A stretch of 64,000 bases of DNA from the NCBI GenBank assembly GCA_963708115.1, contig CAVPRX010000002.1, forward strand, positions 452,092 through 516,091, read 5' to 3'. Below are positions 38,688 to 55,829 of the stretch, one piece after another. Each line of letters starts with the position of its first letter. Position 1 is the stretch's first letter. The position numbers were made by a program, and so were the translations under genes. The notes below the pieces were generated by a model. That model ran no database searches. It was not told the origin of the DNA and saw nothing but the letters and a program-made list of their open reading frames with translations. The stretch is from an uncultured Solirubrobacterales bacterium. Its GTDB lineage: Bacteria; Actinomycetota; Thermoleophilia; Solirubrobacterales; 70-9.

Positions 38688-40331
38688 ATGCCGTTGGACC
38701 GAGAGGTCCGTTCCGGCATGGCGATCCCTCAGGCGACACCCAGCGCGTCCAGGCCGAAACGCGGGCCCAAGCCGGGGCGTCGCCCCAGGCACTGGCACCT
38801 CTGGAAGGACAAGCACTATCGCTGGGTTCCGGATGGCGAGTGCGGCTGGCGGGTCCAGGGCTACATCGTCCGCCACAGGCACAAGCCGCCCAGGCACCAC
38901 CATCGCGGTCCCGGGCCGAGGCCGGCGGACCGCTGCGCGCCGAAGGCGTTCGCCGGCATCGCCCCGCCTCCCAACCCGGATCCCCGCCCACCGGGTACCT
39001 ACCAGGGCCCGTTCGGGCCGGCGCAGGCGACGCGGCTGCTGGAACGGGCCGGGTTCGGTGCGCTGCCGGGGCAGGCGGAGCAACTGGCCACGCGCGGGCT
39101 GCTCGGCGCGGTCCAGTCCCTGACCCGGCCCAGCGGCGGCGCGATGCTGCATGGGCCCGCGCCGGTTGACAGCGACGGCACCCCGATCGCCCCCGCCGAC
39201 GCCTGGGGCCACGACCACCTCTGGTTCCTCGACCGGATGGTGCGCAGCGACCAGCCGCTGGTCGAGCGGATGGCGCTCGTCTTTCACGACTGGTTCGCGA
39301 CCTCCAACGCCGGCGTCTCCAAGCAGCAGCAGATGATCGACCAGTCGAACCTCTTCCGCTCGGCTTGCTTCGGCTCCTTCCTCGACCTCTTCAAGGCGGT
39401 CACCGTCGACCCGGCGATGCTGCAGTGGCTGAACGGTGCCGAAAACACCAAGCAGGCGCCGAACGAGAACTACGGCCGGGAGATGATGGAGCTGTTCTCC
39501 CTCGGGGCCGATCGGGGCGCCTACGGCGAGGACGACATCCGCGAACAGGCGCGGGCGCTGACCGGGTGGCGCTACGACTGGTCGGGGGAGTTCGGCGCCT
39601 ACAACTTCCGCTTCGACCCGAAACGCCACGACACCGGGCTGAAGACTGTCTTCGGTCAGAAAGGCAACTGGGGCTGGGAAGACTCCTGCCGCCTCTGCGT
39701 CGAGAACCCCCTCCATCCATCCTTCTTCGTCGAGAAGCTGTGGAGCTACTTCGTCCCCCAGCCACCTTCCGGCAGCGTCGCGGACGGACTGATGAGGACC
39801 TACCGCGACTCGGGGTGGGCGATCCGGCCGGTGCTCGAGGCGATCCTGAGCGGCCCCGACCTCTACGAAGGCCCACCGATGGTGAAACCCCCCGCCGTGC
39901 AGCTCGCCGGCATGCTGCGCTCGCTCGGACGCGGCATCGACACCGAGGCCTGGACCTGGCTCTGCGAACAGGCCGGGCAGATGCTCTTCTGGCCGCCGAA
40001 CGTCTCCGGCTGGGACGACACCCGCTGGCTTGACACCTCGCGGCTGCGTGCCCGTTGGAACATCGTCGACTACGTGCTCGACCCGATCGCGGTGGACGCC
40101 TGGGGTGGCAGCTACAGCACCACCGAGACGGCCCAGGAAGCGCTGGACCGGGCGACGGCCGCCTGGGGCTCCCCGGCCATGCGCGACGAGCACCGGGCCG
40201 AGCTGCTCGACTTCGCCAAACGCAGCGAAAAACTCGCCGTCGCCAACTGGCAGCAGGGCCCTTACCGCGCAATGCGCCAGAACGCGCTGCTGCAGCTGAT
40301 CGGCGTCAGCCCGGACCTGATCCTGCAATGA
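38688..40331 (+). CDS. DUF1800 domain protein
   Basis: FHDWFATSN...MLQWLNGAENTKQAPNENYGREMMELFSLG is the DUF1800 hallmark. Confidence 0.75.
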   Translation: MPLDREVRSGMAIPQATPSASRPKRGPKPGRRPRHWHLWKDKHYRWVPDGECGWRVQGYIVRHRHKPPRHHHRGPGPRPADRCAPKAFAGIAPPPNPDPRPPGTYQGPFGPAQATRLLERAGFGALPGQAEQLATRGLLGAVQSLTRPSGGAMLHGPAPVDSDGTPIAPADAWGHDHLWFLDRMVRSDQPLVERMALVFHDWFATSNAGVSKQQQMIDQSNLFRSACFGSFLDLFKAVTVDPAMLQWLNGAENTKQAPNENYGREMMELFSLGADRGAYGEDDIREQARALTGWRYDWSGEFGAYNFRFDPKRHDTGLKTVFGQKGNWGWEDSCRLCVENPLHPSFFVEKLWSYFVPQPPSGSVADGLMRTYRDSGWAIRPVLEAILSGPDLYEGPPMVKPPAVQLAGMLRSLGRGIDTEAWTWLCEQAGQMLFWPPNVSGWDDTRWLDTSRLRARWNIVDYVLDPIAVDAWGGSYSTTETAQEALDRATAAWGSPAMRDEHRAELLDFAKRSEKLAVANWQQGPYRAMRQNALLQLIGVSPDLILQ

Positions 40332-40344
40332 GGGGACGCTGACC

Positions 40345-41694
40345 ATGCACAACTGCTGCAAGAACTACACGCGCTCCCAGCTGTTGCGCTCGGCGGCGGC
40401 CGAAGCCGGCAAAGGTCTGCCGGCGATCGAGGCGGGCATGCCCGAGCCCGCCGGGACCGGCCTCTCGAGGCGCACCTTTCTCTCCTGGAGCGCCGGCCTG
40501 GCAATGGCTGTCTACGGCGCCTCAAAGATCCCCCTGGCCGCCTTTGAGGAGGGGATCGCCCAGGCGGCCCAGACCGACAAGATCCTCGTCTCGGTCTTCT
40601 TCGACGGCGGCATCGACGCGCTCAGCGTGCTGGCGCCGACCGGCGACCCGCGCTACTCGCAGCTGCGGCCGAACTTGGCGCTCGCCCCCGACGCGGGGAC
40701 GGAATTCGCCGAGGACCCGCGCCTGCGCTGGCATCCCTCGGCCGCCGGACTGGCCACGCTGCACGAAGAGGGCAAGGTCAGCGCCTTCCCGGCGATCGGC
40801 TACGACCACCCGGATCAGTCGCACTTCACCTCGCGCCACTACTACGAGATCGGCGAGCTCGACGTCGGTTTTCACACCGGCTGGCTGGGCCGCTACATCG
40901 ACGACGTCGGCGACGACGACAACCCCCTGCAGGGGCTCTCGATGGACGGCTCCCTGTCGCCGATGATCGCCACCGCGAACCGACCGGTGGCGGCGATCGA
41001 CAGCGTCGACGGCTACGACCTATGGTCGCCCGTCAGCCAGCCGATCTCCGACGAGATGTTCAAGAGCTTCGCCCGCTTCGGCTCGCTGCCCTCGGACTCC
41101 CCGGGCCTGGCGCAGGTGCGGCGCGCCACGGCCCAGACCGACAAGCTGCGCACCGACCTGGGCGGGATCGGCGGCTTCACGAGCCCGATCACGTATCCCG
41201 ACACGTACTTCTCTCACAAGCTCGCCGGCCTCGCCGCCTTCATCGCCGCCGGCCTGCCGATGCGGGTGGTGACGATCCGGGCCTCGGGCGGCTACGACAC
41301 CCACGCTGAGGAGGCCGAAGACCTCTCGCGGGGCCTGCGCGAGACCTGCGAGGGAGTGCTCGCCTTCCAGCGCGACCTCGAAGCACGCGGTCTCGAGGAC
41401 CGGGTCATGGTGGAGATGTGGAGCGAGTTCGGGCGCCGCCCGGAGGAGAACGCCTCGCTCGGCACCGACCACGGCGCCGCCGGCTGCGCCTTCGTCGTCG
41501 GCTCCAAAGCCAAGGGGGAGATGGTCGGCGAGTTCCCCGGCCTGGGGCAGCTCGACCAAAACGAAAACGTCCGGGTGACCAGCGACTTCCGGGCGATGTA
41601 CTGCTCTCTGCTCGAGCAGTGGCTGGGGCACGACGCCGCGTCGATCATTCCCGGGGCGTCCTCGTTCGAACGGCCGACCCTGGTGAAGCCGTGA
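40345..41694 (+). CDS. DUF1501 domain protein (sulfatase-like fold) with a Tat signal
   Basis: SRRTFLSWSAGLAMAVYGA, GGIDALS and GGYDTHA...GTDHG motifs. This is the usual partner of DUF1800. Confidence 0.75.
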   Translation: MHNCCKNYTRSQLLRSAAAEAGKGLPAIEAGMPEPAGTGLSRRTFLSWSAGLAMAVYGASKIPLAAFEEGIAQAAQTDKILVSVFFDGGIDALSVLAPTGDPRYSQLRPNLALAPDAGTEFAEDPRLRWHPSAAGLATLHEEGKVSAFPAIGYDHPDQSHFTSRHYYEIGELDVGFHTGWLGRYIDDVGDDDNPLQGLSMDGSLSPMIATANRPVAAIDSVDGYDLWSPVSQPISDEMFKSFARFGSLPSDSPGLAQVRRATAQTDKLRTDLGGIGGFTSPITYPDTYFSHKLAGLAAFIAAGLPMRVVTIRASGGYDTHAEEAEDLSRGLRETCEGVLAFQRDLEARGLEDRVMVEMWSEFGRRPEENASLGTDHGAAGCAFVVGSKAKGEMVGEFPGLGQLDQNENVRVTSDFRAMYCSLLEQWLGHDAASIIPGASSFERPTLVKP

Positions 41695-42302
41695 GGAGGG
41701 CGGCTGCGAGGTCGAGCTGTCTGGGACTGGTCGGTTTTGCGGTGGCGGCGATGGCGATGGCGAGCGGCCCGATGGCCGGCGCCGACGCGGTGGCGCCGGA
41801 AGGCTGCACCTGGCAGCGGCACGCCAAGCGCATGATCAAGCACGTAAAGCGACATGGTCGCGTGCAACGGGTCAGGCGAGTGAAGCACTGGTGGACCTGC
41901 GACAGCCAGCCTGCTGTGTCCGCGCTCCCAGCACCCCCACTGGCATCGCCGCCTCCGTCAACCAACGCCCTCCCGCCCGAAGAACCGCAACCGGAAGGCA
42001 CCGCCTCCCATCTCGGCGTCAAAGCAGTCGAGTGGAGCTACACCCTCTCCCGTCCCGCAGTGACCGCCGGCACAGTGATCGTCGAGCTCAACAACCAGGG
42101 CGAAGACAACCACAATCTCAAGCTCCAGCGCGAAGGCAGTGGGGATCCGCCACTGGTCGTTCCAGAAGCGGCGCCCGACGAACACACGACCGCCAGCTTC
42201 AACCTGCCCGCCGGCACCTACCGCCTCTACTGCAGCCTGTTCGAACACGACGCAAAAGGCATGCACGCGACGTTGGTGGTCGGCACGACCGAATCCGGCT
42301 AG
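41691..42302 (+). CDS. Secreted cupredoxin-like protein
   Basis: GTGA overlap with the DUF1501 gene. Has a signal peptide. The C-terminus (NQGEDNHNLKL...YRLYCSLFEHDAKGMHATLVV) carries a His...Cys...His...Met blue-copper ligand pattern. Confidence 0.6.
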   Translation: MRRAAARSSCLGLVGFAVAAMAMASGPMAGADAVAPEGCTWQRHAKRMIKHVKRHGRVQRVRRVKHWWTCDSQPAVSALPAPPLASPPPSTNALPPEEPQPEGTASHLGVKAVEWSYTLSRPAVTAGTVIVELNNQGEDNHNLKLQREGSGDPPLVVPEAAPDEHTTASFNLPAGTYRLYCSLFEHDAKGMHATLVVGTTESG

Positions 42303-42321: not shown

Positions 42322-42663
42322 TCACCTTGAAGGGGGCGACTGCTCGGCGTCCCTCCGCACGATCACGGTCCTGCCGTCGTCGAGGCGATAGACCATGCCG
42401 AGCGGCTTGCCGTGTCCCACGATTCGCTGCCCGGGACGCAGCTTCACCGGTTTGACGTGCTGGTCTCGGTCGGCCACCACGGGCGCAGCCTGCGACCGGG
42501 CTTTTGGCTTGTCGGTGAGGGACGAGGTGAGGTGAAGCGAGGAGAGCGCGGCGAGCAGGAATGCGACCGAGAGCACGATTCCCAGGTCGAAGAGGTTGAC
42601 GAGGCCGTCGAGCGGGTCGCCTGCCCGGTCCTCTCGGCTGCGTGCCCGCGGCGTGACCTTCAC
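42322..42663 (-). CDS. DUF2149-like small membrane protein (ExbD-position partner of the ExbB-like channel)
   Basis: GTGA overlap with the upstream MotA/ExbB-like gene. Single TM helix DGLVNLFDLGIVLSVAFLLAAL followed by a beta-rich tail. Family call is by recall. Confidence 0.55.
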   Translation of the reverse strand: MKVTPRARSREDRAGDPLDGLVNLFDLGIVLSVAFLLAALSSLHLTSSLTDKPKARSQAAPVVADRDQHVKPVKLRPGQRIVGHGKPLGMVYRLDDGRTVIVRRDAEQSPPSR

Positions 42664-43319
42664 GGGGCGACGGCCCAGTGGCTGGGGGGGACGGGGACGC
42701 CGTTGCCGGCCGGAGCGCTGAGGCTGGCGGCCACGTACTCGACGTCGGAGTAGTCCTGGGCGTAGAGGCGATCGCGGACGAGGGAGATCGCGAAGGCGAA
42801 GGCGCCGATCATCAGCCCGGCGACGGTGACGCTGAAGGCGACCCGGAGGTTCTCGGTGAGGGTGGCGACGTCGCCGTCGGCGAGGCCGGCGAGAGCCGGC
42901 GAGAGTGGGATCAAGGTCCCCATCAGACCCAGCGCCGGGCCCATGCGGACGAGGATGCGGGTGCGCTCGAGGCGGCGCAGCGAGAGGTAGTCGTACTCGG
43001 CCAGGCGCTTGGCGAGGCGGGCCTCGGAATGCGGCCGGCCGCACTGCTCGACGATCCCGGCGAGCACATCTTCCATTCGCTGGTTCCAGGCGAACGGCAG
43101 CAGCGCCGCCAGCGCCTCCGCCGGCATCCCGGCGGCGAGCCGGCCCCGGCACTCCTCGACCGCGCGCTCCAGGCCCCAGAGGCTGCGGTGGCGCCGTCGC
43201 CGCACCTCCACCAGCAGGGCGCCGGCTTCGACGACGACGACCCCCAACGCCGCCACGGTGAGGATCAGGACCGGGACGAGCAGGGCGTTGGCGACGTCGA
43301 AGAGGAGCTGCTCGATCAT
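42660..43319 (-). CDS. MotA/TolQ/ExbB proton-channel family protein
   Basis: 219 aa. RMGPALGLMGTLIPLSPAL...ENLRVAFSVTVAGLMIGAFAF is the ExbB/TolQ C-terminal signature. Confidence 0.75.
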   Translation of the reverse strand: MIEQLLFDVANALLVPVLILTVAALGVVVVEAGALLVEVRRRRHRSLWGLERAVEECRGRLAAGMPAEALAALLPFAWNQRMEDVLAGIVEQCGRPHSEARLAKRLAEYDYLSLRRLERTRILVRMGPALGLMGTLIPLSPALAGLADGDVATLTENLRVAFSVTVAGLMIGAFAFAISLVRDRLYAQDYSDVEYVAASLSAPAGNGVPVPPSHWAVAP

Positions 43320-44470
43320 TGGAGCAGGCTCCTGGCCTCGATCAGGGCGCCGGTGCCGAGCAGGCTGAGGGTGGCGAGCAGGCCCCAGGCGGCGCCGGGG
43401 ATCCCGCCGCTGCCGCCATCGTCCTCGAGCTGGCCGCTGCGCGCGGCCGCTTGCTTCGCCGTGACCGGGGGAGCGGTGGCGTTGGCCCTGACCAGCTCTC
43501 CGACGACGCGTTCGCCGCGGGCCGGTCGTTGCTCGGGCTCGGGTGCGGGCGGGGCGGTCGTAGTGGGCTCAGCAGCGGGAGGGCTGGCGGCACTGCCGGC
43601 GCCGGGTCGGGATCGGTCGGCGGCGCCGTGGTCAGGTGCGCCCACGTTGTCGTTGTAGCCGCCGCCCTTGCGGTCCGGGCCGGCCAACGGCGCCCCGACT
43701 TGAATCGTCACCACCGCCGAGGCACCGGTGTCATCGCCGTCGCTGGTGACGCCGAGGACGACGTCGTAGCTGCCGCGCCTGGCGAAGCTGTGCGTGGCCT
43801 CGGCACCCGCGGCCGAGCTGCCGTCATCGAAGTACCAGGAGTAGGTCAGCTGCTCGCCGGACCCGGCTTGCTCGATGACGGCGTTGAAGTGGACTGGACG
43901 GCCGGAGCGGGTTCGCAGCGTCGAAGCCCTGGCCCGAATCCTCAGCCGTGAGCCTTTGTGCAGGACGATCGAGATCCCTTGGGGGGCCTCGAAGCAATCG
44001 CTTGCGTTGAGGTCGTCCGACCCGGCGCTCGGTCGCAGGAAGCCGGTGCCGGAGGCGGTCGCGTAGACGACCGGCGGGCCGTCGGCGAAGGCGCCGGGGT
44101 CGAGCGCCTGGTCACGGCTCAGCAGCACCGCGCCACCGGCCGGACGCTGGACTTCCAGGTAGGAGAAGCCGTAGGGGTCGGCGCCGGCGGCGTCGAGGAG
44201 GGCAGCCAGGGAGAAGCCGCTGAGCGCCCGCGTGCTCTCGCCGCTGGACGAGCGCACAGCGTAGGTCCGGTCGAGCACGTCCTCAGAGCCGGCCAGCGCG
44301 GCGAGCGAGAGCGTCTGCACGGTGCCGCCGGGGGAGGTGACGGTGACCTGGGCGACGTCGGCGCGGACCGCCGTCGCCCAGGGCGAGGCCAGGGCCGCCG
44401 ATGCGACCAGCGAGAACGTGGCCAGCACGGCCGCGGTCAGCCTGCGGTCGAGAACGAGACCGTTGCGCAT
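43316..44470 (-). CDS. Secreted PKD-domain protein with a C-terminal membrane anchor
   Basis: Has a signal peptide, a PKD-like block (LTYSWYFDDGSSAAGAEATHSFARRGSYDVVLGVTSDGD), a Pro-rich spacer and a terminal TM helix. ATGA overlap with the ExbB-like gene. Confidence 0.65.
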   Translation of the reverse strand: MRNGLVLDRRLTAAVLATFSLVASAALASPWATAVRADVAQVTVTSPGGTVQTLSLAALAGSEDVLDRTYAVRSSSGESTRALSGFSLAALLDAAGADPYGFSYLEVQRPAGGAVLLSRDQALDPGAFADGPPVVYATASGTGFLRPSAGSDDLNASDCFEAPQGISIVLHKGSRLRIRARASTLRTRSGRPVHFNAVIEQAGSGEQLTYSWYFDDGSSAAGAEATHSFARRGSYDVVLGVTSDGDDTGASAVVTIQVGAPLAGPDRKGGGYNDNVGAPDHGAADRSRPGAGSAASPPAAEPTTTAPPAPEPEQRPARGERVVGELVRANATAPPVTAKQAAARSGQLEDDGGSGGIPGAAWGLLATLSLLGTGALIEARSLLQ

Positions 44471-45681
44471 CCGAAGTCGGTGCCGGGGGCGTAGAAGCCG
44501 GCGAAGGTCGAGGCTGCGGTGCCGGAGGGGATCGCACCCGGCACCCGTTCGTAGGTGAAGCTGTTGCCGCTGACGCCGATCGATCCGGCGCGGGAGAGGT
44601 CGAGGTTGATCAGGACCTGCCGCTGGGGCGCTCCGCCCGACTCAGAGATCGAGAAGATCGCCCGCGACCCGGCTCCGGCAATCTCGATTTCCGGTTCCGC
44701 CGTGGTCAGGTCGATGCCGTGACCGCTGTAGTGGAAGCGGACGGCGCCGCCGAAGCGCACCAGGGCGCTGTCGTCGGCGGGGTCGGCAAGATTGGCGCCG
44801 GCGTCGTGCCAGCCTGTGGCGAAGGGGAAGTGGAAGCCGTAGCTGAGCGCCGCCGAGGTGCCCGGTGCCAGTAGCGGCGGGTCTGCGGTGGCGCCGCCCG
44901 AGACGCTCGTCCCCTCACCGGTGCCGATGTAGCGGATGAAGGATTCGCGTACCTGCCAGTCGATCGTGGCAGCGGTGATGTCCGTTGCCGCCGGTGGCCG
45001 AGTAGCCACCGGGAGTGGATCTTCTGGGGCGGGACCGCCGCCGCTGGGCAGCGGGCAGGCGGTCGATTTCTGGGCGCCGCCAGGGGCGGAGGGGCCACCG
45101 GCGGCGGGAGCGCCGCTGTCGCCGCGGGTCAGTCCGGCGAGATCGGTGGAGAGGGTGCCGAAGCGGCGAGTCGGCAGCGGCTCCAGCTCCAGTCGCCGGG
45201 AGATCGCACGGGCGCCGGCGCGGGTCAGCTTCAGCCGCAGGCCGTCGAGGCGGACCCTCCCGGTTGCCGCGCTGATCTCGCGCTTGCCGCCGCGCAGGAC
45301 CTTGAAGAGGTCGATCTCTTCGCCGTCCAGCCTGGCCTCGACCAGCGCCCGCTCGCCGAGCAAGAGGCTGAGTCTCGTCAAGCGCATCCTGCCGCCACCC
45401 GTCGCCTCCAGTGAGATTCCGCCGCGGTGGCGCAGCAGGGTCGTGCTCGAACCGGCGAGGCCGGCGGCAACCGGCAGGGAGACCCTGCGGTTGCCGCCGC
45501 TCGCGGGTTTGAGCGGGACGACGCGAACACCCTGCTCTCGCAGGGCATTCGCCGCCGGGCCGTCCAGCGTCAGCTTCGTCTCGCCGCTGGCGCCGAGCGC
45601 CGGGGCGGGGAGAGCGATCGCGGCGGCGACGATAGCCACCGTCGCAAAGGCGCCGAGTCGGCTGGCCGGCCCCCGTCTCAT
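44437..45681 (-). CDS. HtaA-domain haem-binding surface protein 1
   Basis: ATG 45681 (ATGA overlap with the upstream gene) gives a signal peptide. IDWQVRESFIRYIG...FHFPF...GAVRFHYSGHGIDL matches the HtaA conserved-region pattern. The rest of the 857-aa ORF is an artefact. Confidence 0.65.
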   Translation of the reverse strand: MRRGPASRLGAFATVAIVAAAIALPAPALGASGETKLTLDGPAANALREQGVRVVPLKPASGGNRRVSLPVAAGLAGSSTTLLRHRGGISLEATGGGRMRLTRLSLLLGERALVEARLDGEEIDLFKVLRGGKREISAATGRVRLDGLRLKLTRAGARAISRRLELEPLPTRRFGTLSTDLAGLTRGDSGAPAAGGPSAPGGAQKSTACPLPSGGGPAPEDPLPVATRPPAATDITAATIDWQVRESFIRYIGTGEGTSVSGGATADPPLLAPGTSAALSYGFHFPFATGWHDAGANLADPADDSALVRFGGAVRFHYSGHGIDLTTAEPEIEIAGAGSRAIFSISESGGAPQRQVLINLDLSRAGSIGVSGNSFTYERVPGAIPSGTAASTFAGFYAPGTDFGCATVSFSTAG

Positions 45682-46868
45682 TCGGTGTCCACCGAGATCG
45701 TCACCGGGTCGAGCTGCTGACCGTCCGGGTAGCCGGCGCCGAACGCCGCGGCTCCGGCTGCGGTCAGTTTTGCCGGGATAGCGCTCCAGGTGATCGTCTT
45801 GTCGCCGGCCGAGTAGGTCGGGGAGACGGCGCTGACGTCCAGAGTGGCGAAGTCGACGCCGGCGGTCGGCACTGCCGGCACGTCGGTGCAGCTCATCCCC
45901 GCCGGGGTGTCGATGTCGTATATCGAGTCGAGATCGATCCCCGAGTTGGCGCCGTCGATCGTCAGCTCCAGGTCGGAGAGCTTGACTTCGACGATGCAGT
46001 GGCCGGGCTTGGCGAATTTGACGCTGCCCGCCGTGTGCAGGGTGAGCCGGTCGGCGTTGCCGCCGAGCCCCTTCTCGTAGCTGCCGCTCGCGGCCGGGAA
46101 GCTGAAGAAGGCGCTCGATTCCGAGAGCGTCCCGGTTGAGGTGGCGCCTTCGGCAGTGGTGATCGTGCCAACCGAGCCGGGGCCGAAGTTGCCGAGCACG
46201 TAGCTGCGCCAGCTGGCCAGCACACCCCAATCGGCGCCCCCGGAGACGATCGCCTTGGCGGCGGCGTAGGGGGGCTTTAGCGGTTCTGGTGCCGGGGCGG
46301 CCGGGGCGGTGGCGCCGGTCCGCGCGGCGAGCCAGACCATGCCGACGCCCCGCTTGGTCAGGTTCCGCTCCAGACCGAGCTTCCGCTCGAGGGCGCTCGC
46401 CGCCTCGCTGGTGAGCTGCAGCTTGCCTTCCTCGAGGCCGACCGAGTCGGCGCTGACGATCGGTGCCGCGCCTAGCTTGAAGACGGGGATCTCGCTCTCG
46501 CCCAGCTTGCCAACCAGCGTCCCGGCGGCGAGGTCGAAGCGAATCCCGCTCAGCGCCATCGTCTTCTTGCCGCGCTTGAAGTTGAGGCCGGCGCTGCTGG
46601 TTGCCGAGGGCTGAGCGCCGGGGTCGAGCGCGGCGATCGGCAGGGTCAGCCTGTCTGCCTGACCGGTTGCGCCGGTGCCGGGGAGCAGCTTCACGCCCTG
46701 GCCGCTGAGCGTGCGTCCCTTGCTGTGCTTGGCGACGACGATTACGGCCTCGCCTTGACCGCTGGCGGCGGCGGCCGGGGCTGCCAGGGCGGTGGCCATC
46801 GCTGCCGTGGCGGCGAGCGCGAGCAGGCTGGCGACCAGCCGGCTCCTTCTCGGTTCGTTTGAGCTCAT
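45678..46868 (-). CDS. HtaA-domain haem-binding surface protein 2
   Basis: Has a signal peptide. The HtaA-like block is GGADWGVLASWRSYVLG...FFSFP...GSVKFAKPGHCI. Its N-terminal domain is paralogous to that of protein 1. Confidence 0.65.
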   Translation of the reverse strand: MSSNEPRRSRLVASLLALAATAAMATALAAPAAAASGQGEAVIVVAKHSKGRTLSGQGVKLLPGTGATGQADRLTLPIAALDPGAQPSATSSAGLNFKRGKKTMALSGIRFDLAAGTLVGKLGESEIPVFKLGAAPIVSADSVGLEEGKLQLTSEAASALERKLGLERNLTKRGVGMVWLAARTGATAPAAPAPEPLKPPYAAAKAIVSGGADWGVLASWRSYVLGNFGPGSVGTITTAEGATSTGTLSESSAFFSFPAASGSYEKGLGGNADRLTLHTAGSVKFAKPGHCIVEVKLSDLELTIDGANSGIDLDSIYDIDTPAGMSCTDVPAVPTAGVDFATLDVSAVSPTYSAGDKTITWSAIPAKLTAAGAAAFGAGYPDGQQLDPVTISVDTE

Positions 46869-46930: not shown

Positions 46931-46983
46931 TTAGGGCACCCTAAGAAATCCACACTAACAAAGTAGGAATTAGGGTGCCCTAA
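46931..46983 (-). promoter_or_regulatory. Two 14-bp palindromic iron-box-like operators upstream of the htaA operon
   Basis: TTAGGGCACCCTAA at 46931-46944 and TTAGGGTGCCCTAA at 46970-46983. The same motif recurs at 49933, 49947 and 50312. The arms resemble DtxR/IdeR TTAGG..CCTAA half-sites. Confidence 0.55.
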
Positions 46984-47767
46984 CGCCTGTCTCGCGAAGC
47001 CAGGCGACATGCAGGGCGGTACGGCCCTCGTGCGCGGTCAGCCGCGCGTCGGCGCCCCAGACGGAGCCCAGCAGCTCGGCGCTCAAGACCTCCTCGGCTG
47101 CCCCGGTCGCGACGGTGCGGCCCGCCGAGACGACCACGACGGTGTCGGCGACCGCCGCCGCCAGGGCCAGGTCGTGGACGACCAGGAGCACCGCCAGGCC
47201 TTCGGCGGCCAGGTCGCGAAGCAGTCCGGCGACGCCGATCGTGGCGCCGAGATCGAGTTGGGAGGTCGGCTCGTCGGCGATCAAGACGGGCGCCTCCTGC
47301 GCCAGCCCGATCGCGATCTGCACTCGCTGCATCTCTCCCCCCGAGAGCGTCGTCAGCGCCCGCTCGGCGAAGCGGGTGACGCGGGCCCGCTCCATCGCTC
47401 GCTCGATCCCCTCGCGATCGGCGGCAGTGAGGCGTCGCAGCGGTCGCAGCCGCGCCGAGCGGCCGATCGTCACCGCTTCCCGCACCGTGATCCCCGCCGG
47501 CACCGGCATCCGCTGTGGCACGAAGGCGCGCAGCCCGGCCAGCTCGCGCCCGCGCATATCGCCGACCTCACGCCCGTCCCAACGAGCGCTGCCGGCGGTG
47601 AGCCGCTGCAGCCCGGAGATGGCCCGCACCAGCGTCGACTTGCCCGCCCCGTTGGGCCCGACCACGGCGACCAGGCGGCCGCGCTCGAGGCGCAGGTCGG
47701 CCCCGCGCAGGATCGGCACGCCGCCGATCTCGACTTCGATTCCCTGGGCATCCAGCAGTGGCGCCAT
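46970..47767 (-). CDS. hmuV: Haem/iron-siderophore ABC transporter ATP-binding protein
   Basis: Walker A GPNGAGKST, signature LSGGEMQRV and Walker B LIADEP. TGATG overlap with the permease. Confidence 0.8.
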   Translation of the reverse strand: MAPLLDAQGIEVEIGGVPILRGADLRLERGRLVAVVGPNGAGKSTLVRAISGLQRLTAGSARWDGREVGDMRGRELAGLRAFVPQRMPVPAGITVREAVTIGRSARLRPLRRLTAADREGIERAMERARVTRFAERALTTLSGGEMQRVQIAIGLAQEAPVLIADEPTSQLDLGATIGVAGLLRDLAAEGLAVLLVVHDLALAAAVADTVVVVSAGRTVATGAAEEVLSAELLGSVWGADARLTAHEGRTALHVAWLRETGVRAP

Positions 47768-49608
47768 CAGACCGCCTTGCGCAGCAGCCAGAGGAAGAGG
47801 GGGACGCCGAGCAGAACCATGAAGGGGCCGACGGGCATCTCGATCGGGGCCCGCAGGGTGCGGGCGAGGGTGTCGCCGGCGGCGAGCAGAGCGGCGCCGC
47901 CGATCGCCGAGGCCGGCACGACGAAGGTGTGGCTGGAGCTGCCGCCGGCCATGCGGACGACGTGGGGCACGACCAAGCCGAGGAAGCCGAGCAGGCCGGC
48001 GATCGCCGCCGAGGCGGCCGCCAGCAGCGCCGCCGCGATCCCGGCCCCGAGCCGGATCAGCTGCGGGCGGGAGCCGAGCGAGGCGGCGACGTCGTCGCCC
48101 AGGGCCAGCCGGTCCAGCGGCCGGATCAAGCAGGCGGCGATGAGGAAGCCGACGGCGAAGTAGGGCCAGATCGTCTCCATCTCCTGCCAACCGCTGGAGG
48201 TGAGGCCGCCGGCGATGAAGAAGATCGCCGAGGGCGCCCGCTCCGGGTAGGCGGCGAGCAGCCCGGTCGTCCCCGCCGTGAACAACGAGAGCATCGCGAT
48301 CCCGGCCAGGATCACCTTGCCGGTGCTGCCGCGGTTGCGCCCCGACCAGGCGAAAGCGAAGACCAGCGTCGCGGCCAGCAGGCCGAAGAAGAGGGCGCCG
48401 ACCGGCAGCAGCGCGATCGAGCCGGGGAAGAGGATGATGATCAGGATTGCCCCGAAGCCGGCGCCGCCGGTGACCCCGATCACGTCGGGAGAGGCGAGCG
48501 GGTTGGCCAGCGCCCCCTGCAGGATCGCCCCGGCGATGCCGAGCGCGGCACCGACGATCAGCGCCTCGACCGTGCGCGGCAGCCGCAGCGCCTCGATGAT
48601 CTGTTGGTCGGTGCCGCCGCCGCCCTTGCCGAGCAGGATGTCGATCACCTCGCCCGCCGGCACCTTGACCGCACCCAGCGCCAGCGAAGCCACGATGGCG
48701 AGGGCGAGGGCGGCGAGCAGCGCCGCGAAGACCAGGGCACGGCGCGCCACCTGGGTCAGTTCTTCAGGTAGGCGCGGCGGACCTTGCGGATCGTGCGCGG
48801 CGATGTCGGTCCCCGCCTGCAGCAGCGAGTTGTCGACCGAGACGTAGACCTGGCCGGTCCGCGCCGCCGTGGTGCTCGCCCAGGCTGGGTTGTCGCGCAG
48901 GTATTCGGTGAGGCTGGGGATGTCGTCGGCGCTGGCGTGCGGGACGGCGATGATGATGTCGGGGTCTTCGGCGACCACGACTTCGTCGGAGATCCGCTCG
49001 AAGCCCGAGTTGGACTTGACGCCGCCGGTGAGCAGCTCGCCGCCGGCCTTGCTGACGATGTCGCCACCCCAGCTGTTGGGCAGGAAGGTGAAGGGAGTGC
49101 GGCCGACGCCGAGGATCAGCATCACCTTCGGGTGTTTGTCGATCCCTTTGGTAGCGGCCTCGACCTGCTTGCGCATCGACTGCAACAGATCGCGGGCGTA
49201 GTGCTTGCGGCCGACGATCGTGCCGATCTTGAAGGTGTCGGCGAGGGCGCCGTCGACCGAGCGCGGGTCGTTGAGGACGACGTCGATCCCCAGGCTCTTC
49301 ATCGCCTGGTTTCCCTTGGCCCAGGTCCGGGAGGAGAAGACGAGATCGGGATCGAGCGAGGCGAGCTGCTCGAGGTTGGGCCCGTTCGGGTGCGAAAGCG
49401 GCAGCGTGGTGACCCCCTCCAGCTTCGGCGAGAAGCGTTCGGCGCCACCCAGCGTTTCGCCGATCCCGACCGGCGTCACCCCGAGCTTTGCCAGCGTGTT
49501 GGCGGCGAACGGCGTCAGCGCGACGATCCGCTTTGGGGGCGCCGCCTGACTCGTAGCCGGCAGGCAGAGCGCCACCAGGAGCAGGACGAGGCCGAGTGGC
49601 TTCCTCAC
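47767..49608 (-). CDS. Haem/iron ABC transporter: periplasmic-binding-protein domain (HmuT-like) fused as read to the FecCD-family permease (HmuU-like)
   Basis: GTG 49608 (GTGA overlap with the isdG-like gene) gives a signal peptide and then RIVALTPFAANTLAKLG. From about 48750 there are ten TM helices with FecCD motifs. An alternative frame ends the binding protein at 48756. See finding. Confidence 0.7.
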   Translation of the reverse strand: MRKPLGLVLLLVALCLPATSQAAPPKRIVALTPFAANTLAKLGVTPVGIGETLGGAERFSPKLEGVTTLPLSHPNGPNLEQLASLDPDLVFSSRTWAKGNQAMKSLGIDVVLNDPRSVDGALADTFKIGTIVGRKHYARDLLQSMRKQVEAATKGIDKHPKVMLILGVGRTPFTFLPNSWGGDIVSKAGGELLTGGVKSNSGFERISDEVVVAEDPDIIIAVPHASADDIPSLTEYLRDNPAWASTTAARTGQVYVSVDNSLLQAGTDIAAHDPQGPPRLPEELTQVARRALVFAALLAALALAIVASLALGAVKVPAGEVIDILLGKGGGGTDQQIIEALRLPRTVEALIVGAALGIAGAILQGALANPLASPDVIGVTGGAGFGAILIIILFPGSIALLPVGALFFGLLAATLVFAFAWSGRNRGSTGKVILAGIAMLSLFTAGTTGLLAAYPERAPSAIFFIAGGLTSSGWQEMETIWPYFAVGFLIAACLIRPLDRLALGDDVAASLGSRPQLIRLGAGIAAALLAAASAAIAGLLGFLGLVVPHVVRMAGGSSSHTFVVPASAIGGAALLAAGDTLARTLRAPIEMPVGPFMVLLGVPLFLWLLRKAV

Positions 49609-49904
49609 GCCGGCACCCTCGTGTCGATCACGTCGTAGTTGCGAACCTCGCTGCCGTGGGCGAGCTCGCCGTCGGCGTGTCGGTGGCTCATCTTGAAGAG
49701 GTCGCTGTTGACCCACTCCCGGAAGGCGTCCTCGTTCTCCCAGCGGCTCAGCACCACGTACTCGCCATCGCGGTCGCGCCGCAGCAGCTCAAAGCCGGCG
49801 AACCCCTCGGCTTTGTGGACGTGGCTCTCGCGCTCCAGAAACGCCCGCTCGAACGCCTCCCGTCGCTCCTCGTGTACATGGACAACGTTCATCACCAGAT
49901 ACAA
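49605..49904 (-). CDS. IsdG/MhuD-like haem-degrading monooxygenase (ABM family)
   Basis: 99 aa with NVVHV....R..FE..F......V....GF..FELL, the ABM pattern. It is the first gene of the hmu operon. Confidence 0.6.
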   Translation of the reverse strand: MYLVMNVVHVHEERREAFERAFLERESHVHKAEGFAGFELLRRDRDGEYVVLSRWENEDAFREWVNSDLFKMSHRHADGELAHGSEVRNYDVIDTRVPA

Positions 49905-49932: not shown

Positions 49933-49960
49933 TTAGGGCGCCCTAATTAGGTTGCCCTAA
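49933..49960 (-). promoter_or_regulatory. Tandem iron-box-like palindromes upstream of the isdG-hmuTUV operon
   Basis: TTAGGGCGCCCTAA at 49933-49946, immediately followed by TTAGGTTGCCCTAA at 49947-49960. Confidence 0.55.
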
Positions 49961-50018: not shown

Positions 50019-50309
50019 CTACTTGCCCAGCGCGGCGCGAGCTCGCTTGGCGAGCTTGACCGTTGCCATGCGAAGGCCCTCGGGGCCCTCGATCGGCTCG
50101 CCGTAGGAAACGCGGACGGGAGCCTCGCCGGCGGCGGATTGGATCACCAGGTCGAGGCCAAGGCGGTCGGCGTCGACGCAGCGTGCGGCAGTCGCCTGGG
50201 GCGCGCCGCCGAGCGCGCGCGCCATGTCCAGCAGGGCGTCGGCGTGGTCATCGTTGAGATGGTCGATGGCGTGCGCGGCGCCACGGCTCACTGGGTCGTC
50301 CTGCTTCAT
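50019..50309 (-). CDS. DUF2470-like haem-utilisation protein
   Basis: 96 aa. AIDHLNDDHADALLDMAR is typical of DUF2470 (the HugZ C-terminal-like domain). Sits in a haem gene context. Confidence 0.55.
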   Translation of the reverse strand: MKQDDPVSRGAAHAIDHLNDDHADALLDMARALGGAPQATAARCVDADRLGLDLVIQSAAGEAPVRVSYGEPIEGPEGLRMATVKLAKRARAALGK

Positions 50310-50311
50310 GG

Positions 50312-50325
50312 TTAGGGCACCCTAA
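50312..50325 (-). promoter_or_regulatory. Iron-box-like palindrome abutting the DUF2470 start codon
   Basis: TTAGGGCACCCTAA begins 2 nt upstream of ATG 50309. Confidence 0.5.
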
Positions 50326-53366: not shown

Positions 53367-53437
53367 AGCGGCGGACGGGAATTGAACCCGCATCATCGCC
53401 TTGGAAGGGCGAGGCTCTACCGTTGAGCTACCACCGC
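53367..53437 (-). tRNA. tRNA-Gly(TCC)
   Basis: Acceptor GCGGTGG/CCGCCGC. Anticodon arm TCGCC-CTTCCAA-GGCGA. T-arm GCGGG-TTCAATT-CCCGT. Discriminator U. Confidence 0.85.
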
Positions 53438-53513
53438 GTGCGCGAGTCGCCTTCATATGGGATCCGCGTCGCCTAGGTAGTTTGCCCGAATCCGTCAGAA
53501 TGCGGAGCAGCCA

Positions 53514-53587
53514 CGGGGAGTGGCGCAGTCTGGTAGCGCACTCGGCTGGGGGCCGAGCGGTCGCAGGTTCAAATCCTGTCTCCCCGA
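53514..53587 (+). tRNA. tRNA-Pro(GGG)
   Basis: Acceptor CGGGGAG/CTCCCCG. Anticodon arm CTCGG-CTGGGGG-CCGAG. T-arm GCAGG-TTCAAAT-CCTGT. Confidence 0.85.
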
Positions 53588-53730
53588 TATTCCGATATTT
53601 CAGAGCCGGCTTGGGAAGCGGCTTGAGGCCCAAGCGGCTTGATGAAGCCGTGCGGAGTTGCCGCCTCGAGACCCGCTAGGGTCAGTCCGGAGCGGAGCTA
53701 CGCCTGACCCTTCGCCCCGGAGAACTGGAC

Positions 53731-54750
53731 GTGACCGCTGCGAACCGCAACCTCCAAGACGCCAAGAAGGCCAAGGAGGACGAGTTCTACACGCAGCTCG
53801 GGGACATCGAGCGCGAGTTGCGTAACTACAAGTCCCATTTCAAGGGCAAGGTGGTCTATTGCAACTGCGACGACCCGCGCGTGAGCAACTTCTTCCACTA
53901 CTTTTCCTACAACTTCGAAAAGCTGGGGTTGAAGAAGCTCATCACGACGTGCTACCGGAGCCAGCGAGCCGACGCCTTCAGTCAGAACGACTCCGAGCAG
54001 GCGATCTACCTGCAGTACGACGGTGACGGGAATCACAACAACGTTCCCGATCCCGAGGAGATTGGCGTCAAGGCGTTGAAGGGCGATGGTGACTTCCGCA
54101 GCGCGGAGAGCGTCGATCTTCTCAAGCAGGCAGACATCGTTGTGACTAATCCGCCGTTCTCGATGTTCCGCGAGTTCGTGGTGCAGCTCATCGCCTTCGA
54201 GAAGAACTTCCTCATCGTCGGCAACCAGAACGCGATCACCTACAAGGAGATTTTCCAGCTAATCCAGAATAACGAGGTCTGGGTTGGCGTAAATAGTGGC
54301 GACATGGAGTTTCGGGTCCCGGACTACTACCCGCCAAGGAAGACTCGGTATTGGGAAGTTGAAGGAAAGAAGTGGCGCAGCCTCGGTAATGCCTGTTGGT
54401 TTACCAACCTTGACTTCTCGAAGCGCCACGAGGACCTGATCCTCTTCAAGGCATATAACCCCACCGACTACCCCACCTATGCGAATTACGACGGCATCGA
54501 GGTAGGGAAGACGGTCGATATTCCAGTGGACTACGACGGCCCCATGGGAGTGCCGATCACGTTTCTCAACAAGTACAACCCCGATCAGTTCGAGATCCTG
54601 GGCAACAGCCGCGAACTTGGAGCGCCTATGGCGAGCATCGCAAAGAAGGACGCATATCAGCAGGGCGGCCCTAGGTTCTACCTCCCCAACGGCGACGGCA
54701 CCTACCGCCGCTTGTACGACAGGATCGTCATTAGGAACAAGGGCCTATGA
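53731..54750 (+). CDS. EcoRI-family N6-adenine DNA methyltransferase
   Basis: VVTNPPFS (motif IV) and the N-terminal AKKAKEDEFYTQL.DIE.EL..Y..HFKGKVVYCNCDDP pattern of the EcoRI-methylase family. About 339 aa. Markedly lower G+C. Confidence 0.75.
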   Translation: MTAANRNLQDAKKAKEDEFYTQLGDIERELRNYKSHFKGKVVYCNCDDPRVSNFFHYFSYNFEKLGLKKLITTCYRSQRADAFSQNDSEQAIYLQYDGDGNHNNVPDPEEIGVKALKGDGDFRSAESVDLLKQADIVVTNPPFSMFREFVVQLIAFEKNFLIVGNQNAITYKEIFQLIQNNEVWVGVNSGDMEFRVPDYYPPRKTRYWEVEGKKWRSLGNACWFTNLDFSKRHEDLILFKAYNPTDYPTYANYDGIEVGKTVDIPVDYDGPMGVPITFLNKYNPDQFEILGNSRELGAPMASIAKKDAYQQGGPRFYLPNGDGTYRRLYDRIVIRNKGL

Positions 54751-55829
54751 AGATCGAGCTAAAGGAGATGAAGGTCCGCGATCTCACCGAGGGCTATCAG
54801 GACAACGACGAGGCAGGCGTCGTCGGCTACTCGGGCAAGTTGGACATTCGCCCGCCGTATCAGCGTGAGTTCATCTACAAGGACAAGCAGCGGGACGCGG
54901 TCATCGACACGATCACCCGGGACTTCCCCCTCAATGTCATGTACTGGGCAGTGCGGGATGGCGGCGACTATGAGGTCATCGATGGGCAGCAGCGCACGAT
55001 CTCTGTATGTCAGTACGTAGAGGGAGATTTTGCCTTCGAGGGTCGCTACTTCCACAACCTTCAGTTGGATGAGCAGCAGCGCATCCTCGACTACAAGCTG
55101 ATGGTCTACCTATGCAGCGGGACTGACAGCGAGAAGCTCGAGTGGTTCAAAACCATCAACATCGCGGGGGAGAAACTCACCGACCAGGAGCTGCGCAACG
55201 CGGTGTATGCGGGGTCGTGGGTGTCTGACGCCAAGCGCTACTTCAGTAAGAACGGCTGCCCCGCCTACAGCATCGGCAGCGATTACATGACCGGCACCCC
55301 CATCCGTCAGCACTACTTGGAGACGGTGATCGAGTGGATCAACGGCGGTGACGTCGAGGGCTACATGGCCAAGCAGCAGCACAAGCCCAATGCGAACGAG
55401 CTTTGGCTCTACTTTCAGAATGTGATGGCGTGGGTGACAGCCAGCTTCCCAAAGCACCGCAAGGAGATGAAGACGGTCCATTGGGGCGAGCTCTTCAACG
55501 AGTTTGAGGGCACGGAGTTGGACTCGGCGATGCTCGAGGAGCAGGTCGCGACGCTGATGGCCGACGAGGACGTAACCAACAAGCGGGGCATTTACTCCTA
55601 TGTGCTCAATGGGCAGGAGAAGCACTTGAACATCAGGGCGTTCAGCCCGAACCAGAAGCGTGAGGCCTATGAGCGTCAAGAAGGTCTTTGCCCCGTATGT
55701 GGAAAGCGCTTCGAGCTCGAGGAGATGGAGGGCGACCACATCACGCCCTGGCATGACGGTGGCAAGACGGAGGCTGCGAACTGTCAGATGTTGTGTCGCG
55801 ACGACAACCGCAGGAAGGGCGGCGTCTAG
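54747..55829 (+). CDS. DUF262 (GmrS/ParB-like) domain fused to a C-terminal HNH nuclease
   Basis: ATGA overlap with the methylase. IRPPYQREF and VIDGQQRTISV are the DUF262 DGQQR motif. The C-terminal CPVCGK...GDHITPWHDGGKTEAANCQMLCRDDNRRKG is an HNH domain. Confidence 0.75.
   Translation: MKIELKEMKVRDLTEGYQDNDEAGVVGYSGKLDIRPPYQREFIYKDKQRDAVIDTITRDFPLNVMYWAVRDGGDYEVIDGQQRTISVCQYVEGDFAFEGRYFHNLQLDEQQRILDYKLMVYLCSGTDSEKLEWFKTINIAGEKLTDQELRNAVYAGSWVSDAKRYFSKNGCPAYSIGSDYMTGTPIRQHYLETVIEWINGGDVEGYMAKQQHKPNANELWLYFQNVMAWVTASFPKHRKEMKTVHWGELFNEFEGTELDSAMLEEQVATLMADEDVTNKRGIYSYVLNGQEKHLNIRAFSPNQKREAYERQEGLCPVCGKRFELEEMEGDHITPWHDGGKTEAANCQMLCRDDNRRKGGV

Follow-up and report, generated by a model that had tools for sequence, protein, structure and literature searches.

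What use would a bacterium without an outer membrane have for a motor of the Ton type? ExbB/ExbD proton-driven motors energise the outer membrane and the TonB-dependent receptors of Gram-negative bacteria. A protein of this family also lies in a haem-acquisition locus of an actinobacterium, within a 64-kb stretch of DNA (G+C ~69%; the window hereafter). There, five translationally coupled minus-strand genes spanning 42322-46868 encode two HtaA-domain proteins, a membrane-anchored PKD-domain protein, an ExbB-like protein and a DUF2149 protein. The answer that we put forward, tentatively and at somewhat short of an even chance, is that the last three make up a TonB/Has-like motor module which releases ligand from secreted binders for an ATP-binding cassette (ABC) importer. 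The names of homologues point to Solirubrobacterales (Thermoleophilia, Actinomycetota), and Actinobacteria outside the Corynebacteriales, flagellated Thermoleophilia included, are regarded as monoderm (PMC10746217). The host is thus apparently monoderm, as an earlier note on this DNA had supposed; for the mycomembrane-like layer that the same note had entertained, nothing in our analysis speaks.

Gene frames were derived from open reading frames (ORFs) combined with third-position GC (GC3) analysis. The GC3 frame plot backs all five frames of the operon, and boundaries, overlaps and frames agree with the gene chain as it was first described (Table 1). Profile searches uphold the domain assignments made in the earlier note (two HtaA, PKD, MotA_ExbB and DUF2149), each of the five proteins exceeding its Pfam gathering score. 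The operon had also been placed downstream of hmuTUV-type genes, and a hmuT-hmuU fusion and hmuV do lie upstream on the same strand. Finally, the locus had been said to lack TonB and TonB-dependent receptors. In agreement with this, tblastn searches for TonB, ExbD, TolR, TolA and a TonB-dependent receptor, with queries that included E. coli TonB, E. coli TolA and a gut HmuR receptor, found none in the window and 81 related loci (1.52 Mb), a search of limited sensitivity that covers local context only.

The case for a motor begins with the ExbB-like protein. It matches MotA_ExbB (PF01618) with an E-value of 3.2e-8 and 33.8 bits against a gathering score of 22.9, and this family is annotated on 120 of 120 homologues among the matches listed. 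The protein has three transmembrane (TM) helices and aligns over its full length (residues 9-199, E ~0.09) with the solved Serratia ExbB. Profile-profile alignment with ExbB/TolQ (hhalign, probability 77%) pairs P128, G131, L132, G134, T135 and T165 with P141, G144, L145, G147, T148 and T181 of ExbB, where T148 and T181 face Asp25 of ExbD. In 45 diverse relatives, the TM2 motif P-x-x-G-L-x-G-T and the TM3 Thr columns are invariant or at least 90% conserved, T135 belonging to the invariant positions and T165 to those conserved in at least 90%. Sequence identity is 31% to gut HmuU and 33% to an archaeal homologue. A flagellar stator was ruled out by the length of 219 aa, the ExbB/TolQ-like three-helix layout, the setting in an uptake operon and a partner without an OmpA-like domain.

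That partner, the DUF2149 protein (PF09919, E 1e-11, 45.4 bits against a gathering score of 27.1), carries the motif GDPLDGLVNLFD-GIVL, conserved at 90% or more across 82 copies from Actinomycetota. The motif places an Asp, D26 of NLFD, in the membrane, and the NLFD Asp recurs in gut Bacteroidota-type HmuV and in archaeal DUF2149. AlphaFold2 (AF2) predicts a basic N-terminus, an N-in orientation and a single TM helix (17-49) at a high predicted local distance difference test score (pLDDT), and the protein thereby shares with ExbD/TolR an N-in single TM helix with a conserved Asp near its cytoplasmic end. Gene order, topology and D26 together bear out the earlier placing of DUF2149 in the ExbD position. 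An hhalign comparison of 48 DUF2149 sequences with ExbD and TolR sets D26 on ExbD D25, though weakly (probability 15% over 32 columns), and a sequence search of the PDB returned no match for DUF2149. From the retained residues and the topology, we infer that the cytoplasmic membrane harbours a proton-driven motor of the ExbB/ExbD type, composed of the ExbB-like protein and DUF2149. Pairwise ratios of non-synonymous to synonymous substitution (dN/dS) are 0.26-0.50 for the ExbB-like protein and ~0.25 for DUF2149, below those of HtaA and comparable to those of the ABC ATPase HmuV, which argues against decay of the pair.

The module shares its regulation with the haem genes. A 14-bp palindrome, TTAGGGYRCCCTAA, of the pattern TTAGGG-YR-CCCTAA, occurs five times in the window against 0.2 occurrences expected by chance, and all five copies lie inside the haem locus (Table 1). 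Operators paired at a spacing of 38-39 bp recur in several of the fetched loci, which we number with an L (L002, L003, L005, L006 and L009); across the whole fetched set, the palindrome is confined to haem-type loci and L017, L025 and L029. It stands directly upstream of the PKD or exbB-like gene in L001, L009, L011, L031, L025 and L029, the last two being Conexibacter isolates, and this position makes the motor module part of the haem regulon. Two HtaA proteins, the HmuT-U/HmuV importer, an IsdG/HmuQ-like enzyme and the three-gene module are united under a common operator in a haem-acquisition regulon. We recognised no regulator gene for TTAGGGYRCCCTAA near the locus, and a look for transcripts found this DNA in none of the public runs. 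The IdeR/DtxR box is a 19-bp palindrome, TTAGGTTAGGCTAACCTAA, with 9 bases between its arms; TTAGGGYRCCCTAA has 4 bases between its TTAGG/CCTAA arms, and those arms are all that the two have in common. Judged against this consensus, TTAGGGYRCCCTAA was rejected as an IdeR/DtxR box because the spacing differs. Of the two iron-box palindromes that the earlier note saw upstream of the operon, the palindromes are real and the name is not established, their spacing being non-canonical.

The third gene of the module encodes the PKD protein (Pfam PKD_4, 1.9e-14), whose Met1 is kept in at least 90% of 57 homologues. An AF2 model built on the alignment of these 57 sequences has a mean pLDDT of 75.7, rising above 90 in both folded domains, and divides the protein into the parts given in Table 1. 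Its C-terminal TM helix carries the conserved residues G374, A375 and E378, and the cytoplasmic tail is ~5-25 residues long. The best Foldseek matches are sulfite oxidases (E 6e-8), at a remote TM-score of 0.27. Across the 57 homologues no Pfam family, Oxidored_molyb included, matches the N-domain; C159, the sole Cys, is unconserved, Ser being the consensus residue. Since both the signature and a conserved Cys are missing, the N-domain was rejected as a true molybdoenzyme of the sulfite-oxidase family and the likeness is treated as a resemblance of fold only. Homology of the PKD protein with HmuT or DUF2162 was likewise dismissed, there being no tblastn match to these in the window and 81 loci; those proteins are polytopic, not anchored by a C-terminal tail.

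Is the PKD protein a regular companion of the motor or an incidental neighbour? In 58 of 82 loci, from context types A, B and D (described below) and from others, the start of the exbB-like gene coincides with the end of an ORF of 150 aa or longer. Among upstream proteins from non-haem loci, a hidden Markov model (HMM) of the PKD domain matches 34 of 41 and one of the N-domain 10 of 41. The anchor is too short for HMM scoring (0 matches); counted instead as a motif, against control proteins, a C-terminal TM helix with G-x(2-4)-E-x-R/Q occurs in 43 of 54 upstream proteins versus 2 of 983 controls. By these sequence comparisons, the PKD protein is not incidental but the usual third member of a conserved actinobacterial triad. 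That a Glu should be conserved in an anchor of otherwise simple make-up suggests a specific contact within the membrane, for which the motor is the obvious candidate.

The putative clients of this module are the haem binders. HtaA-1 matches Pfam HtaA (PF04213) over residues 210-392 (3.7e-29, 102.8 bits), and HtaA-2 matches the same family (5.1e-17, 63.4 bits), against a gathering score of 24. In 20 aligned homologues of HtaA-1, W214, S219 and Y223 are invariant and H290 is kept in 70-90%; Y223 we take to be the haem-ligating Tyr known from corynebacterial work. Hydropathy gives HtaA-1 an N-terminal signal peptide, with no lipobox and no C-terminal anchor, and HtaA-2 no C-terminal TM helix. The same method finds a C-terminal TM helix in 0 of 24 HtaA and 0 of 27 TupA-like proteins of these loci; lipobox-like motifs are confined to 3 HtaA proteins and 1 TupA-like protein. 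The earlier description of corynebacterial-type haem receptors is right in respect of the HtaA domain and the W/S/Y signature; it fails for the C-terminal membrane anchor, none of the 24 proteins having a hydrophobic C-terminus. HtaA and TupA-like binders appear to be secreted and unanchored, whereas in the window the HmuT domain and its permease form a single fused protein. A monoderm does not usually leave its binding proteins unanchored, and a docking site would be needed. A docking domain common to the N-terminal regions of HtaA and the C-terminal extensions of TupA-like proteins was considered on a blastp match (E 0.033) but rejected on a profile-profile probability of 0.8%.

The importer that would receive the haem adjoins the operon. 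The best NCBIfam match of the ATPase HmuV is haem ABC transporter ATP-binding protein (1.2e-62), under the equivalog cut-off. The hmuT-hmuU fusion is translated without a stop between binding domain and permease, its binding part matches IsdE best, and its true start probably lies downstream of 49716. Substrate-binding protein and permease are separate genes in some relatives, such as L001. The ABM-domain protein next to the importer matches HmuQ (2.1e-16) and IsdG (5e-9) in NCBIfam, both under their cut-offs.

How widely is the module found, and in what company? A word-indexed search returned thousands of close ExbB-like and DUF2149 relatives, of which the named ones are almost all from Solirubrobacterales. 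An exhaustive search of 1.84 billion cluster representatives gave 1078 ExbB-like proteins at E <= 1e-3, a number that marks a small divergent subfamily and not mainstream ExbB/TolQ/MotA. Its distant representatives include Methanosarcinaceae, Gimesia and Solirubrobacteraceae. Two of the proteins, P0320 (703 aa) and P0345 (640 aa), have a signal peptide and an extracellular region of ~400-450 residues fused, with a Thr/Pro-rich linker, to the outward-facing ExbB-like N-terminus, and two distant ones, P0295 and P0321, have extra C-terminal membrane domains. Genomes of GTDB species contain at least 599 loci, and Actinomycetota account for every one of the best 80, among which are the isolates Conexibacter arvalis, C. 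stalactiti, Nocardioides fonticola and Aeromicrobium stalagmiti.

Gene contexts were counted in 82 actinobacterial loci, the 81 fetched and the window; counts per context type are approximate, since the gene calls behind them, made by GC3 in the fetched loci, are crude. The exbB-like gene is followed by DUF2149 in all 81 fetched loci. About 16 loci share the arrangement of the window (type A: HmuT-HmuU-HmuV-HtaA(-HtaA)-PKD-ExbB-DUF2149), among them every non-truncated relative of at least 72% identity; the haem arrangement is kept in L001-L009, L011-L013, L022, L031 and L043. In about 33 (type B), the triad lies between a gene for a TupA-like binding protein and genes for a TupB-like permease and an ATPase, with a MerR-Mop/TOBE regulator nearby. 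Examples occur among L032-L078, such as L053 (6321-13383) and L058 (7338-12500; Nocardioides fonticola JCM 16703), the latter confirming type B in an isolate. The TupA-like binders are 458-720 aa long, with C-terminal beta-rich extensions and no anchor, and by sequence type B is a tungstate/molybdate-type (TupABC-like) importer operon with a proton-motor module. In 13 loci (type C), the pair stands alone and divergent from an FhuF-like gene, and in 6 (type D) PKD-ExbB-DUF2149 lie among housekeeping genes. Context type follows the ExbB-like phylogeny, and the associations are on that account stable. The pair is co-conserved with HtaA/Hmu genes in the closest clade, under the same operator, an outcome that the reading in the earlier note required, but the module is not specific to haem: the HtaA/Hmu context accounts for ~16 of the 82 loci and oxyanion importer operons of the TupABC type for ~33. 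In Conexibacter the triad is found alone, behind the haem-locus operator.

Several details of these contexts deserve record. The FhuF-like gene of type C (L014-L030, for example L017 1831-3689) has a siderophore-iron reductase C-terminal domain and lies near metH, and in L017 an operator-like site is found 48 nt upstream of the exbB-like gene. In Conexibacter an ORF of 1124-1176 aa abuts the triad (L029 11197-14727; L025 11173-14547), by gene call on the same strand in L029 and on the opposite strand in L025; the copy in L029 has no Pfam match.

The association of MotA_ExbB and DUF2149 with haem genes is already on record as HmuU and HmuV of the Bacteroidota hmuYRSTUV operon (PMC11681262, PMC10434189, PMC12583661), and we find it in a gut metagenome locus as well (L140 369-8914), together with a TonB-dependent receptor, CobN in two ORFs and a 235-aa polytopic HmuT. 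In P. gingivalis, P. intermedia and B. thetaiotaomicron, the operon is iron-induced, with hmuU encoding a MotA/TolQ/ExbB protein and hmuV a DUF2149 protein (PMC11681262, PMC10434189). As in the window, MotA_ExbB is followed by DUF2149 within a haem-uptake operon (P. gingivalis PG1554-1556; B. thetaiotaomicron BT_0491-0493). The role of the Bacteroidota HmuTUV is only predicted, either as energising HmuR (PMC12583661) or as transport across the inner membrane (PMC12094164). The companions differ: the Bacteroidota operon has the receptor HmuR, the lipoprotein hemophore HmuY, a CobN-type HmuS and a polytopic HmuT, whereas the window has a PKD ectoprotein and HtaA binders, and tblastn found no match to CobN, DUF2162, HmuT or HmuR in the 82 actinobacterial loci. 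What is new here is the setting: a monoderm with no TonB-dependent receptor and no CobN, and a partner, the PKD protein, that had not been described before. In the literature that we searched, HtaA and ExbB are mentioned together only as separate systems in reviews, and DUF2149 sparsely, the relevant accounts being the annotation of Bacteroidota hmu.

Archaeal clusters in Methanosarcinaceae and relatives resemble the window in that the same ExbB-like subfamily adjoins DUF2149 in single-membrane organisms. They differ in their DUF2162 and CobN-like partners, as in the archaeal-type locus L089 (7309-14427; DUF2162, MotA_ExbB, DUF2149 and a CobN-like protein of 1731 aa), and have no HtaA, PKD-anchored protein or adjacent haem ABC importer. 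To our knowledge, no function has been described for these DUF2162-MotA_ExbB-DUF2149-CobN clusters. Nearer in lineage is the HtaA/HtaB-HmuTUV system of corynebacteria, which shares the W/S/Y signature of HtaA, an adjoining hmuTUV-type importer and an actinobacterial host. Corynebacterial HtaA and HtaB have a C-terminal TM anchor and are not known to need an ExbB-like motor. Unlike these, the HtaA proteins of the window lack anchors and share an operon with the motor module, haem degradation is of the IsdG/HmuQ and not the HmuO type, and the operator is not the 19-bp DtxR box. In its parts, the locus may also be compared with TonB-ExbB-ExbD and the Has system (HasA/HasR/HasB): an ExbB-family channel and a small single-TM partner with an Asp in its TM helix; a third, anchored protein that combines an outward globular domain with a long spacer, Pro-rich or disordered; and a scarce, tightly bound nutrient with a secreted binder to be unloaded. 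By contrast, the host is without an outer membrane, tblastn found no TonB-dependent receptor or TonB homologue in the local context, and the acceptor would be the binding domain of an ABC importer.

These comparisons allow a working cycle to be proposed. D26 of DUF2149 would be the protonatable Asp, and T135 and T165 of the ExbB-like protein would line the proton path, to judge from residues and topology. The PKD protein may serve as the output arm of the motor, an inverted analogue of TonB, as gene context suggests; its linker of ~100 residues could span the cell wall, and its ectodomain would dock a secreted, unanchored binder, HtaA here and TupA-like proteins in the sister clades. Proton-driven work might then free a tightly held ligand or the emptied binder, haem passing to the HmuT domain of the importer, in a cycle analogous to the TonB-energised HasA/HasR hemophore system with no outer membrane. 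Stated in its most general form, the proposal is that monoderm Actinomycetota have a TonB-independent, proton-powered nutrient-capture machine, in which a 5:2 motor of the ExbB-like protein and DUF2149 acts with a Glu-anchored, wall-spanning PKD ectoprotein to unload HtaA or TupA-like scavengers onto ABC importers; this broader claim we regard as possible but doubtful.

The proposed release of ligand by a motor finds some encouragement in distant ExbB-like relatives that have an extracellular domain fused to their outward N-terminus. A number of points weigh against it. The physical contacts among motor, PKD protein and HtaA are postulated from gene context, and the call of a secreted, unanchored binder comes from crude hydropathy and regular expressions applied to our own ORF calls. 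The single-sequence match of the ExbB-like protein to solved ExbB is weak (E ~0.09). DUF2149 has no match to ExbD (PF02472) in Pfam at E <= 0.01 and only a weak one to ExbD/TolR in hhalign; ExbD and TolR have a periplasmic alpha/beta domain of ~90 residues, whereas the outer part of DUF2149 has ~60 residues, which AF2 models as a small three-stranded unit at a pLDDT of 42-64. The PKD protein is anchored at its C-terminus and TonB at its N-terminus, and its domains are unrelated to those of TonB. The FhuF-associated clade of type C has no PKD gene beside the pair. Finally, the pairing with a polytopic DUF2162 or HmuT and a CobN-type (de)chelatase in Bacteroidota and archaea hints at a role related to chemistry and not at receptor energisation.

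Chemistry is accordingly one of the alternatives to be weighed. The motor would in that case drive an extracytoplasmic metal or tetrapyrrole step, such as haem-iron reduction, dechelation or oxyanion release, and the N-domain of the PKD protein would be catalytic or bind a cofactor. The neighbouring CobN-type proteins of L140 and L089 fit such a role, HmuS being a demonstrated haem dechelatase (PMC12583661), as do the sulfite oxidases that head the structural matches of the PKD protein (E 6e-8) and the link of a sister clade, through its Mop/TOBE regulators, with molybdate/tungstate uptake. We nonetheless think it unlikely: homologues of CobN, DUF2162 and HmuT were not found in the 82 loci, the structural likeness is remote (TM-score 0.27) with no Oxidored_molyb signal in the 57 homologues and an unconserved C159, and the locus already possesses an intracellular IsdG/HmuQ-like enzyme and an importer of whole haem. 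The binders, which have no anchors of their own, could also be moved, positioned or released through the wall by a Tol-like or secretion-related envelope device, or simply tethered near the importer with no energised release. The long linker and membrane anchor of the PKD protein suit a passive tether, and TolQR-type motors act on envelope structure in diderms (PMC12905483). A passive tether, however, would not need the conserved Asp/Thr set of the proton path, and a general envelope function sits poorly with a module found between the binding-protein and permease genes of importers for two unrelated substrate classes and placed under the haem-locus operator; we hold an envelope role to be quite improbable.

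Less plausible by far is trans-membrane signalling, in which the triad would sense the occupancy of binder or ligand outside the cell in the manner of FecA/FecR. Ton motors do take part in diderm surface signalling and the module is linked to a regulon, but the cytoplasmic tail of the PKD protein measures only ~5-25 residues, and neither haem-type nor Tup-type loci have a conserved neighbouring gene for a sigma or anti-sigma factor or a kinase. A 2025 survey of 'incomplete Ton systems' in Actinobacteria judged them likely non-functional (PMC12204202), and a vestigial remnant of this kind would account for the failure of local tblastn to find TonB or a TonB-dependent receptor and for a monoderm envelope that offers no outer-membrane target (PMC10746217). 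The conservation data make such a remnant most improbable. There are at least 599 genome loci, with DUF2149 paired to the exbB-like gene in 81 of 81 fetched, key residues are invariant across classes and domains of life, and purifying selection resembles that on the ABC ATPase, in genes that overlap by 4 nt and occupy an operator-controlled position.

The putative actinobacterial motor, in contrast with the verdict of the survey (PMC12204202), is conserved, under purifying selection, co-regulated and translationally coupled in nutrient-uptake operons of cells without an outer membrane. If motor-driven release from secreted binders is correct, the Ton principle would extend to such cells, and there would be a testable answer to how Gram-positive bacteria unload very tight secreted binders of haem and metals. 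It would also provide a function for DUF2149 and for HmuTUV, the unstudied portion of a Bacteroidota haem operon abundant in the human gut, and a new type of output for the 5:2 motor family. The ancestral work of HmuUV/DUF2149 in archaea and Bacteroidota might, on the same premise, have been on extracytoplasmic proteins that handle metals or tetrapyrroles. Cultivable carriers of the module exist in Conexibacter, Nocardioides fonticola and Aeromicrobium.

Table 1. Genes and operators of the haem locus (window positions) and parts of the PKD protein (residues, from the AF2 model)
Feature	Position	Strand	Length	Remarks
htaA-1	45678-46868	-	396 aa	
htaA-2	44437-45681	-	414 aa	start at 45681; ATGA overlap with htaA-1
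PKD gene	43316-44470	-	384 aa	34-nt overlap with htaA-2
exbB-like gene (hmuU-like)	42660-43319	-	219 aa	ATGA overlap with PKD gene
DUF2149 gene (hmuV-like)	42322-42663	-	113 aa	GTG start; GTGA overlap with exbB-like gene
hmuV, ABC ATPase	46970-47761	-		Pfam ABC_tran 2.4e-29
hmuT-hmuU in-frame fusion	47767-49716	-		Pfam Peripla_BP_2 1e-30 and FecCD 3.7e-77 in one ORF
IsdG/HmuQ-like ABM haem-degrading monooxygenase	49605-49904	-		Pfam ABM 1.4e-18
DUF2470 (HugZ-associated domain) protein	50019-50325	-		Pfam DUF2470 4.8e-18; NCBIfam HugZ partial 1.5e-6
Operator pair	46931-46944 and 46970-46983			39 bp centre to centre; between hmuV end and htaA-1 start
Two adjacent operators	49933-49960			copies at 49933 and 49947; beside ABM gene
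Operator	50312-50325			at DUF2470 gene
PKD protein, signal helix	residues 3-28			
PKD protein, N-domain	residues 41-171			beta-rich
PKD protein, PKD domain	residues 177-258			
PKD protein, linker	residues 260-358		~100 residues	disordered, Pro/Ala/Gly-rich
PKD protein, C-terminal TM helix	residues 359-383			

Three further features of the window lie outside the haem locus. On the plus strand (38688-42302), a DUF1800/DUF1501 pair (38688-40331 and 40345-41694) and an ORF without a family (41418-42302) are transcribed towards the end of the DUF2149 gene; we saw no link between these and the haem locus. ARAGORN calls a 94-nt tRNA-Val(GAC) on the minus strand (12830-12923) for which the Rfam tRNA model is silent at its gathering score, and the call may be a false positive or an atypical tRNA. 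A stretch of low G+C (53367-55829; 0.58 versus ~0.69) adjoins tRNA-Gly and tRNA-Pro. An EcoRI-like adenine methyltransferase is encoded there at 53731-54750 and a GmrSD_N/HNH endonuclease at 54747-55829, and the stretch was probably acquired as an islet for restriction-modification or defence.

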